DNA of 24,000 nt from an archaeon GW2011_AR15. Its GTDB lineage: Archaea > Nanobdellota > Nanobdellia > Woesearchaeales > GW2011-AR15. Shown piece by piece: positions 12,333 to 12,546 of this stretch; position 1 is the first letter of the stretch, and each line of letters begins with the position of its first letter. Location: contig CP010425.1 of NCBI GenBank assembly GCA_000830295.1, positions 603,308 to 627,307 of the forward strand, given 5' to 3'. The translations under genes were made by a program, and so were the position numbers. The notes under the pieces were generated by a model, which was not told the origin of the DNA, searched no databases, and worked only from the letters and a program-made list of their open reading frames with translations.

Positions 12333-12347
12333 TAAGATTTTTAAAAC
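12333..12347 (+). promoter_or_regulatory. TATA-like promoter box TAAGATTTTTAAAAC upstream of the tRNA-Arg locus
   Basis: It shares TAAGATTT..TAAAA with the box at 14960-14972. It ends 24-25 nt before G12372, the same spacing as between TATA-like boxes and the ATGs of genes 6770 and 13030. Confidence 0.5.
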
Positions 12348-12371
12348 ACTGTTAATTCTTTCTCTATTCAT

Positions 12372-12471
12372 GCGCCTTGTAGCTCACATGAATCAACTGT
12401 CCTGTCGGTTGACACCGGTGTGCGGCGTGCGCTCATTAGTGAGCTTAGCCCCACTAATAAAGAAAAAACAT
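12372..12471 (+). other. 100-nt structured 5' leader / degenerate tRNA-like element upstream of tRNA-Arg
   Basis: It begins with GCGCCTTGTAGCTCA, a copy (one extra T) of tRNA positions 1-14. It contains GTGAGCT (12439-12445), complementary to AGCTCAC (12381-12387). It also has hairpins CGGT-TGAC-ACCG (12406-12417) and ATTAGTG/CACTAAT (12435-12441 / 12452-12458). Confidence 0.45.
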
Positions 12472-12546
12472 GCGCCTGTAGCTCAGCTTGGATAGAGCGA
12501 CTGCCTCCTAAGCAGTAGGTCCGGAGTTCGAATCTTCGCAGGCGCG
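12472..12546 (+). tRNA. tRNA-Arg (anticodon CCT), no intron
   Basis: Manual cloverleaf. Acceptor GCGCCTG/CAGGCGC; D arm GCTC-AGCTTGGATA-GAGC; anticodon arm ACTGC-CTCCTAA-GCAGT; variable AGGTC; T arm CGGAG-TTCGAAT-CTTCG; discriminator G. Followed by CTTTTCTTTT. Confidence 0.93.

Follow-up and report, generated by a model that had tools for sequence, protein, structure and literature searches.

In a 24,000-nucleotide stretch of the genome of the archaeon GW2011_AR15 (contig CP010425.1; the whole stretch is hereafter called the window), the gene for tRNA-Arg(CCU) is preceded by a leader of about 100 nucleotides whose first nucleotides repeat the 5′ end of the tRNA itself, and the gene for tRNA-Leu(CAA) is preceded by a 47-nucleotide leader of the same design. 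The explanation we favor, to which we give roughly even chances, is that the copy is a retained partial self-duplication of the gene behind a promoter of the leaderless type, that the leader holds an RNA element under selection and is cut off by an RNase P-type activity, and that the copy is kept matched to the tRNA by short-patch conversion. The window loci were compared with those of about 10 related lineages, recovered through synteny of the neighboring Ogg gene (57–79% Ogg identity), whose nearest named homolog comes from a metagenome-assembled genome (MAG) of a Nanoarchaeota (DPANN). Among the relatives' loci (denoted L001 and so on), L020 lies on the same contig as L028 (79% Ogg identity to the window) and L022 comes from the same organism as L031 (64%). 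A synteny search across genome contigs yielded one useful relative, L001, whose tRNA-Arg was missed by both ARAGORN and Rfam. The window sequence is also that of contig JAGVXU010000001.1 in the groundwater archaeal MAG GCA_018303605.1. The leader arrangement does not differ among seven independent assemblies of this organism (NCBI, ENA, JGI and Logan), which rules out an assembly artifact as the source of the repeat.

The tRNA-Arg(CCU) gene occupies positions 12472–12546 on the forward strand, has no intron, and is recognized by ARAGORN and by the Rfam tRNA model RF00005 (64.7 bits). Its upstream self-copy A1, CATGCGCCT[T]GTAGCTCA (12369–12386, forward strand), matches CATGCGCCTGTAGCTCA (12468–12485) at 17/17 positions with one inserted T and copies positions −3 to +14 of the tRNA; the repeat had been noticed in the first-pass annotation and extends 3 nucleotides farther upstream than described there. 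In 1/50,000 shuffles, the 150 nucleotides upstream contained a 14-nucleotide match with no more than one edit, and this rarity, together with the recurrence in relatives, rules out a chance repeat. A TATA-like box found by sequence, TAAGATTTTTAAAAC (12333–12347, forward strand), could serve the transcript of leader and tRNA-Arg and ends 24 nucleotides before G12372. The equivalent boxes of the leaderless genes at 6770 and 13030 end 22 nucleotides before the ATG, not 24–25 as first given; aligned on the ATTTNNAAA core, the spacing is 26 nucleotides for the copy versus 24 and 23 nucleotides for the two genes. Because the box spacing resembles that of these leaderless genes, the transcription start site (TSS) is predicted at 12370–12372, on the copy, as the first-pass annotation had proposed. 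The homologous box in L028 lies 25 nucleotides upstream of the L028 copy. The leader closes with an A-rich tail, TAATAAAGAAAAAACAT (12455–12471, forward strand), up to the 5′ processing site that we infer at 12471/12472, and the tail end ...AAAAAACAT is common to the window and L028. Immediately 3′ of the tRNA stands a T-rich sequence with the appearance of a terminator, CTTTTCTTTTG (12547–12557, forward strand), and no 3′ self-copy occurs within 300 nucleotides in the window. A small open reading frame (ORF) was also considered: from a leaderless ATG at 12370, a frame of 41 codons runs into the tRNA, and the frame in the tRNA-Leu leader has 47 codons. It was rejected because L028 has TTG CAG TTG TAG at this place and the frame is unconserved.

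Leaders homologous to that of the window's tRNA-Arg are present in L028 and L031, and each starts with a copy of the 5′ end of its own tRNA. The window tRNA begins GCGCCUG... and its copy GCGCCU[U]G...; in L028 the tRNA 5′ end reads GCAGUUGUAGCUCAG and the upstream copy GCAGUUGUAGCUCAC, and in L031 they read GCAGUCGUAGCUCAG and GCAGUCGCUGCUCAA. The copy equals the lineage's own acceptor strand in all three cases (GCGCCUG, GCAGUUG and GCAGUCG), with all 4 variable positions tracking the tRNA. Identity among the three lineages amounts to 66–74% in the leader interior, 47–52% in the downstream flank, 50–69% in the promoter region and 78–92% in the tRNA. Considering that the leader interior is far more conserved than the flanks, the leader appears to be old and conserved, and the copy to have kept pace with the tRNA. 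The window copy reads as a hybrid of GCGCC (positions 1–5 of its own tRNA) and UUGUAGCUCAC (identical to positions 5–15 of the L028 copy), and the junction between these two parts would explain the extra U of the window copy; the composition suggests that a short patch from −3 to +5 was copied from the tRNA onto an old copy. The tRNA-Arg genes of L028 and L031 share 92% identity at 62% Ogg identity, as against 78% at 79% Ogg identity for the window and L028, and the leader interior, unlike the tRNA bodies, follows the Ogg distances. From this mismatch it would follow that the tRNA was replaced or changed fast in one lineage and that the copy followed. The copies bear lesions at positions essential for a tRNA, namely the extra U in the window and a change of U8A9 to CU in L031. 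Farther upstream, at the TSS, L031 has an additional and more complete pseudo-tRNA 5′ part in which D-loop-like and anticodon-arm-like parts are kept.

Two options had been put forward in the first-pass annotation, a decayed tandem duplicate of the tRNA whose leaderless promoter now drives the surviving gene, and a functional leader that mimics its own tRNA. With regard to origin, duplication provides the best fit, given that the distance from box to copy equals that from box to +1 in the relatives' leaderless tRNA genes, that relatives have the same tRNA-Leu with no leader, and that L031 has its pseudo-tRNA. The leader is not inert, though: its interior is conserved, its helices show compensatory changes, and the copy is matched in every lineage. 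A decayed full tRNA in 12372–12446, where a pseudogene scan had been proposed, is not supported, as the RF00005 model gave no match there even at E≤10 and only the first 14–15 nucleotides are tRNA-like.

Comparison of the three leaders indicates that the interior of the Arg leader is a selected RNA element, made up of one hairpin and one 35-nucleotide module, and not a sequence in decay. Hairpin 1 (12393–12412, forward strand) has the stems TCAACTG (12393–12399) and CGGTTGA (12406–12412) around the loop TCCTGT; all three lineages form 7/7 pairs, one of which has changed in a compensatory way from C-G to U-A, and z = −3.2. The module (12420–12454, forward strand) was delineated by covariation and is described by our covariance model R1. 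It forms an irregular hairpin with the outer stem GUGCGGC/GCCCCAC, which contains a conserved C×C mismatch, an internal loop GUGC/UUA, and an inner hairpin GCUCA-UUAG-UGAGC. In an alignment of seven sequences, 98.9% of cells are paired and 3 pairs have changed on both sides, which no slid control reaches; the compensatory changes in hairpin 1 and the module arose among sequences in leader context. Model R1, built from this alignment, scores 56–66 bits on all module copies and found no others in the 278 kb of collected loci to which the search was limited. For the 176-nucleotide precursor, minimum free energy prediction places leader and tRNA in separate domains. Our best guess is that the element, expressed from the tRNA promoter, is an independent small RNA or binds a protein. 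The window Arg leader has neither C/D or H/ACA boxes, nor the terminal stem of a box C/D RNA, nor an H/ACA pocket; Rfam 15 gave no family at E≤10 for the Arg leader or the module, and none at the gathering threshold in relatives.

This fold bears on the second option, for which three helices had been drawn in the Arg leader: one between the copy and GTGAGCT (12381–12387/12439–12445), a hairpin competing with it, and one between GGCGT and GCGCC of the copy. All three can form in the window (7/7, 7/7 and 5/5 pairs), but they are not conserved in L028 and L031, where the first two keep 6/7 + 2/7 and 3/7 + 3/7 of their pairs and GGCGT/GCGCC is lost in register. GTGAGCT is in fact the 3′ strand of the module's inner hairpin, and the specific decoy and anti-5′-end helices give way to a different, covarying fold to which their nucleotides belong. 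An acceptor-like stem of the copy with nucleotides of the type CGAC(A)UGC was likewise examined; it can be drawn in L031 and L028 and is out of register in the window. We judged it unsupported because those nucleotides are part of the module and have the same sequence in introns of unrelated tRNAs.

The latter contexts emerged from one metagenome scan with the module pattern, which returned the L028 and L031 leaders plus other settings. The module lies inside T-loop 59/60 bulge-helix-bulge (BHB) introns of two unrelated tRNAs (L025, identical to L030, 192–301; L032:282–392), inside a D-loop intron (L027, 1841–1951), and once in intergenic sequence (L026:907–1017). Across these different DPANN archaea, the shared consensus of 35–43 nucleotides is GUGCGRC-RUGC-GCUCAC...GUGAGC-UUA-GYCCCAC. 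The T-loop introns of L032 and L025 have textbook hBHBh′ junctions, CCCGG-UUCA-AA|A...UGAA-AG|U-CCGGG, which were identified by eye and served as a positive control. In the same two loci, GAAAGUCCGGG resembles the CR-I motif of RNase P RNA; this candidate was dismissed, as the sequence is the junction of intron end and T-stem and no RNase P model matched. One tRNA of L025 (140–300) has an anticodon-loop intron whose GGAUAAG is complementary over 7 nucleotides to CUUAUCC in its T-loop intron, which suggests intron–intron pairing in the precursor.

Two intron-based explanations were considered. In the first, the copy is a former exon 1 and the leader a former D-loop intron, while the trailers that follow some tRNA genes in relatives (see below) are former T-loop introns with the last exon; speculatively, the middle exon was exchanged for a full tRNA copy delimited by the transcript ends, perhaps via an RNA intermediate. 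Such an externalization would account for the occurrence of the module in genuine BHB introns, including the L027 D-loop intron, which has a similar short tail after the module. The copies also end at positions 12–14 or start at 57, both of them known sites of non-canonical introns in Thermoproteales and DPANN. The outer limits of the copied blocks coincide with the predicted TSS (−3 to +1) and the T-run, and the tRNA-Arg of relatives has non-canonical introns (L001, L154 and L023). However, neither leader junction retains a relic BHB in any of the three lineages, the tail ...AAAAAACAT|G shared by the window and L028 implies one old event, after which the copy must again have tracked the tRNA, and no reverse transcriptase was seen. 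We regard this origin as improbable.

The second, which we consider the least probable of all, is an intron of the present day, in which the upstream copy would be the real 5′ exon and the splicing endonuclease would remove the rest, including the second copy. In its favor, the apparent start of transcription coincides with the copy, as would be expected of a leaderless tRNA, the clade is rich in non-canonical introns, and in all cases the two copies allow a 4-bp central helix, UGCR/UGCR. Against this, no flanking helices form at any register common to the three lineages, and the central helix needs a base upstream of +1. Splicing at the lesioned copies would yield a defective tRNA unless the junction lay within the first 6 nucleotides, and what lies downstream makes up a full tRNA (64.7 bits) by itself. 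The first-pass annotation had been unable to build a BHB at the repeat junctions, and a scan of all tRNA-regenerating registers (window, L028, L031 and the window tRNA-Leu) bears this out: none has a central and a flanking helix in all lineages.

Non-canonical introns in tRNA-Arg(CCU) are documented for L001 (3818–3920), L154 (6582–6690) and L023 (5790–5893). In L001 the gene has a D-loop BHB, UUGG-AU|A-CCUCC...GGGGG-CCAA-AA|A, and escapes ARAGORN and the Rfam tRNA model; in L023, ARAGORN mislabels the tRNA-Arg(CCU) as tRNA-Val. At a further locus, P0022 (JGI 3300072015), a LAGLIDADG_3 ORF of 316 amino acids lies between the 353-amino acid gene and ogg, the place taken by tRNA-Arg in relatives, and may represent an intron-borne or free-standing homing endonuclease at a tRNA locus.

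The claim that the same design recurs at tRNA-Leu was borne out. The tRNA-Leu(CAA) gene (15045–15171, forward strand; Rfam 44.3 bits, and ARAGORN with introns allowed) has a canonical 43-nucleotide intron at 15083–15125. Its leader (14998–15044, forward strand) comprises the copy GCGGAGGT-GCG (14998–15008), an inner hairpin (15009–15028), GACCTCCTCA (15031–15040) and the tail AAAC. The copy reproduces GCGGAGGTAGCG (15045–15056), an equal match being found in 2/20,000 shuffles, and the TATA-like box of the transcript, TAAGATTTAAAAG (14960–14972, forward strand), lies 25 nucleotides upstream of G14998. The 47 nucleotides fold into a strong hairpin (z = −3.6), in which GACCTCCTCA resembles the 3′ end of the tRNA (GACCUCCUCA in the leader versus GUCCUCCGCA in the tRNA). 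In L155 an orthologous box stands 24 nucleotides upstream of an exact 13-nucleotide copy, GCGGAGUUGCCGG, which is followed by a 44-nucleotide spacer and the tRNA; this leader has the window's architecture in its own sequence, with the complement CAACUCC and z = −4.75. Copy and complement, GGAGGU/ACCUCC in the window versus GGAGUUG/CAACUCC in L155, both differ in step with the tRNA and share a C2×U mismatch. Two further features of these genes were noted: the window tRNA-Leu intron contains GUGAUGA and GCGAUGAC, which resemble C and C′ boxes, with no clear CUGA, and by analogy with the guides in tRNA-Trp introns it may be a degenerate intron-borne C/D guide; the L155 tRNA-Leu carries three long insertions.

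The Leu leaders keep alive the general idea of an acceptor-stem mimic, as a minority reading only. It would hold that the 5′ end of the transcript is a minihelix imitating the acceptor stem of its own tRNA, selected as RNA and co-evolving with it, so that each affected pre-tRNA starts, and in relatives also ends, with such a minihelix acting as a cis chaperone or decoy for folding or end-processing. During folding, the mimic might capture the tRNA's 3′ strand or compete for it; alternatively, it could be a decoy for, or be recognized by, an enzyme that binds acceptor stems, such as RNase P, tRNase Z or the CCA-adding enzyme. We think both this selection as RNA and this function unlikely, though less so than either intron-based explanation, and we know of no described class of pre-tRNA leaders or trailers that mimic their own tRNA. 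Selection finds its strongest support in the Leu leader, where copy and complement change in step with the tRNA in the window and L155 and the folds are strong. Copies match the tRNA in every lineage, the minihelix units downstream of tRNA-Arg in L154 carry a compensatory A4-U69, and short direct repeats around some 100 nucleotides would be expected to vanish quickly from a streamlined genome in the absence of selection. On the other hand, the copy is missing at the corresponding tRNA in many relatives: L154 and L159 have a leaderless tRNA-Leu, and tRNA-Arg has a C/D-like leader in five lineages and no leader in L159. The Arg copy has no conserved partner in its leader, the candidate partner nucleotides belonging to the module; the copies are damaged at positions that a tRNA requires; identity extends into flanks that are not tRNA (CAT upstream, a T-run or CTT downstream); and most 3′ copies lie beyond strong T-run terminators.

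The first-pass annotation had called for a survey of self-copies at other tRNA loci. We searched for the terminal 13 nucleotides of each tRNA with at most two edits within 300 nucleotides on the appropriate side. Of about 20 tRNA loci in the close clade, 5 have a 5′ copy and 8 have a 3′ copy, compared with 0/29 for wrong-side controls and 0/11 for more distant DPANN loci. The 3′ copies, which in relatives belong to tRNA-Arg, tRNA-Gly and tRNA-Leu genes, run from T-loop G57/A58 to the tRNA 3′ end and 0–9 nucleotides beyond the gene, match the tRNA except for single T-stem changes in some, and are each followed by a T-run of their own. They lie 55–150 nucleotides downstream of the gene (L028:7360–7460 and L031:2400–2560, both on the reverse strand; L023:5894–5990; L001:3921–3985; L022:7417–7505; L159:4870–4950 and 6796–6915), most of them past strong T-run terminators, and in L031 the copy is present twice. 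Homology among the trailers between tRNA and 3′ copy extends across lineages and also links those of tRNA-Arg with those of tRNA-Gly (z = 5–15), and the trailers form a hairpin with covariation; in several, a degenerate segment resembling the 5′ strand pairs with the 3′ copy. On the 3′ side of tRNA-Arg in L154 (6690–7100) there is a 32-nucleotide tandem repeat with an assembly gap, followed by 61-nucleotide tandem units. Each such unit joins a 3′-end copy to a 5′-strand-like partner and has the compensatory A4-U69 in place of the tRNA's C4-G69.

These blocks might also be traces of mobile DNA. Integrative elements or small insertions directed at tRNA genes could have duplicated an attachment (att) or target sequence, from the 5′ end to the D-loop or from the T-loop to the 3′ end, leaving leaders and trailers as remnants between the copies, a scenario we rate as somewhat less probable than the acceptor-stem mimic. 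The 3′ copies span G57/A58 to past the gene like classical tRNA att blocks, and arrays occur in L031 (2) and L154 (61-nucleotide units). The Arg and Gly trailers are homologous, a LAGLIDADG ORF sits at the tRNA-Arg position in one relative, and there is a published precedent in Caldiarchaeum subterraneum, where a recombinase-bearing element duplicated a 5′ fragment of tRNA-Thr (PMC3293823; PMC4390854). The identity block expected of an att site, from a tRNA stem-loop to past the gene end, is seen in the relatives' 3′ copies and is inapplicable to the window's 5′ copies (−3 to +14). Against this origin, Pfam reveals no integrase, transposase or recombinase among the window ORFs, nor do the relatives' gene tables list one beside the copies. 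The spacers measure only 37–100 nucleotides, with 85 (Arg) and 35 (Leu) nucleotides between the window repeats, and leaders and trailers are conserved and structured while the copies flanking them are lineage-specific, which would demand repeated integration with identical decay. The module had 0 matches in a viral contig collection; a trailer word gave more than 120 chance matches there and is too unspecific.

Other relatives show what else can stand between the promoter and these tRNA genes. In L001, L023, L154, L155 and L156, a different leader of about 65 nucleotides (about 65–80 nucleotides upstream) separates the same promoter from tRNA-Arg(CCU). This leader has a terminal stem of 7–8 bp, with AUGACGA close to the 5′ terminus and CUGA close to the 3′ terminus; by these motifs it would be a C/D-box-like small RNA (sRNA) starting at the predicted TSS; no Rfam family matched it at threshold in the five lineages, and the tRNA-Arg of L159 has no C/D-like leader. 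In these five lineages tRNA-Arg(CCU) is itself interrupted by introns, canonical or non-canonical. The theme of the locus thus appears to be a small structured RNA co-transcribed upstream of tRNA-Arg(CCU). Relatives also have leaderless tRNA genes with the box 21–24 nucleotides upstream of +1 and no copy, namely tRNA-Gly in L022, L157 and L158 and tRNA-Leu in L154 and L159. The ancestral state was probably leaderless, with the copies occupying the old +1 and a block of spacer plus copy added.

Taken together, retained self-duplication with a selected passenger RNA would proceed as follows. Judging from the box spacing, the archaeal promoter would still fire at the old +1, a position now taken by the start of the copy of 14–15 nucleotides. 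The primary transcript would contain the copy, some 85 nucleotides of structured leader and the tRNA in the case of Arg, and a collapsed mini-copy of 47 nucleotides plus the tRNA in the case of Leu. An RNase P-type endonuclease would cut at 12471/12472, yielding the tRNA and a leader RNA of about 100 nucleotides. The leader element would ride on the tRNA promoter as the C/D-box-like sRNA may do at the same place in sister lineages. The copy itself is most likely a relic of the old gene start, with probably no role of its own as RNA; its identity to the tRNA would be maintained by short-patch DNA conversion or by slippage between the direct repeats, and the same process at tRNA 3′ ends could have left the 3′ copies and T-runs downstream of many tRNAs of the clade. 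The organism should need a 5′ endonuclease in any case, because its tRNA-Gly(CCC) gene (13709–13859; found by Rfam, with a canonical 80-nucleotide intron at 13746–13825) begins 1 nucleotide past the stop codon of the leaderless ogg gene (13030–13707) and has no AT-rich box at −25 to −38. It is probably co-transcribed with the ogg mRNA. In L155, tRNA-Gly adjoins ogg as in the window, while in other relatives it has its own box 22–24 nucleotides upstream of +1. The sRNA–tRNA units of sister lineages would likewise require a 5′ endonuclease.

Several points weigh against this scheme. Both the TSS and the cleavage site are deduced from sequence, and the interior of the Arg leader is not recognizable as a remnant of a tRNA. 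The terminal copies are exact, yet the sequence between them is unrelated to the tRNA, unlike in a simple decaying tandem duplicate, and conversion over a 17-nucleotide repeat with one-sided homology would be unusual. In both Leu leaders, moreover, the complement strand tracks the tRNA and the C2×U mismatch is shared, which looks more like selection for a helix than like conversion. The scheme does not fully account for short terminal blocks of tRNA sequence being kept exact outside conserved spacers across a whole DPANN clade.

Among known systems, the nearest in promoter design is Nanoarchaeum equitans, where a promoter at fixed distance makes the tRNA transcript start at +1 and RNase P is absent (PMC10100707). 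The clade studied here is also a DPANN lineage, and several of its tRNAs as well as the self-copies show a box-to-+1 spacing of 21–25 nucleotides. Unlike in N. equitans, the box distance for the window tRNA-Arg and tRNA-Leu points to starts 100 and 47 nucleotides upstream of +1, the two leaders beginning with the duplicated +1 sequence, and tRNA-Gly abuts a coding gene; a 5′ endonuclease would therefore be required.

Transcripts that combine a small RNA and a tRNA are familiar from plant tRNA–snoRNA genes and from archaeal C/D sRNAs in tRNA-Trp introns or beside tRNAs. The present case resembles them in that a structured RNA shares the tRNA promoter and would be freed by tRNA end-processing, with a C/D-like RNA in the sister lineages, and differs in that the window leader has no C/D or H/ACA boxes or Rfam match and begins with a tRNA copy. 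Upstream of haloarchaeal 5S rRNA a tRNA-like structure is cleaved by tRNase Z, and in this system and in mascRNA-type mimics the mimic defines the end of a product that is not a tRNA. An acceptor/T-arm-like minihelix in the precursor could similarly direct a tRNA-processing enzyme, but by comparison with these systems, a tRNase Z cut at the Leu minihelix would leave 4–6 extra nucleotides on the tRNA.

The likeness to att-type tRNA duplications consists of a short exact copy of a tRNA end beside the intact gene, 3′ copies that start in the T-loop, and serial copies; unlike in those cases, neither element nor recombinase lies between the copies, the spacers are conserved and RNA-like, and the 5′ copy sits on the promoter's start site. 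Identity between introns and the leaders of split tRNAs has been reported (Fujishima et al. 2010; Kanai 2015, PMC4390854), and here, too, one module family occurs at different positions of different tRNAs, both as intron and as leader. In contrast to split tRNAs, the leader precedes a complete tRNA and not a half, and no BHB joins the two. As in the concerted evolution of tRNA duplicates, the copy equals the gene within a lineage and differs between lineages, and the window copy is a hybrid; the homogenized blocks, however, span only 13–24 nucleotides, stand outermost, and border sequence that has no relation to the tRNA. The feature would be a variant of partial tRNA gene duplication, sRNA–tRNA co-transcription and shared intron/leader elements.

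If our preferred explanation, a retained self-duplication behind a leaderless-type promoter, is correct, a leaderless tRNA gene can gain a long leader in one step, a small RNA may then become dependent on a tRNA promoter, and terminal tRNA blocks of 13–24 nucleotides are kept identical to the gene across speciation. The acceptor-stem mimic, if true, would add a new type of tRNA mimic that acts in cis. Under both readings, the loci offer a concrete, testable case for the old question of how archaeal tRNA introns, leaders and gene fragments interconvert. Standard annotation misses the 35-nucleotide module of tRNA leaders and BHB introns, which has no Rfam family, the clade-wide 5′ and 3′ terminal self-copies around tRNA genes, and tRNAs with non-canonical introns such as that of L001, left uncalled by ARAGORN and the Rfam tRNA model.

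A 10-kb extension of the contig beyond the window contains no further tRNA. Within the window, a CPDase/2H-phosphoesterase (LigT-like) gene lies between the tRNA genes at 13914–14417, in a synteny with them that is kept in relatives. An aRNase J-type beta-CASP nuclease gene is found at 20790–22127; its product, like the LigT-like protein, is an RNA-end-processing enzyme. The MAG that contains L001 is labeled 'Methanosarcinales', probably wrongly, as its Ogg gene, gene order and tRNA features group with the DPANN relatives of the window. On the reverse strand, a 1661-amino acid ORF with no Pfam domain spans positions 15708–20693, and its position is kept in L023 (1742 amino acids) and L024 (at least 1381 amino acids).

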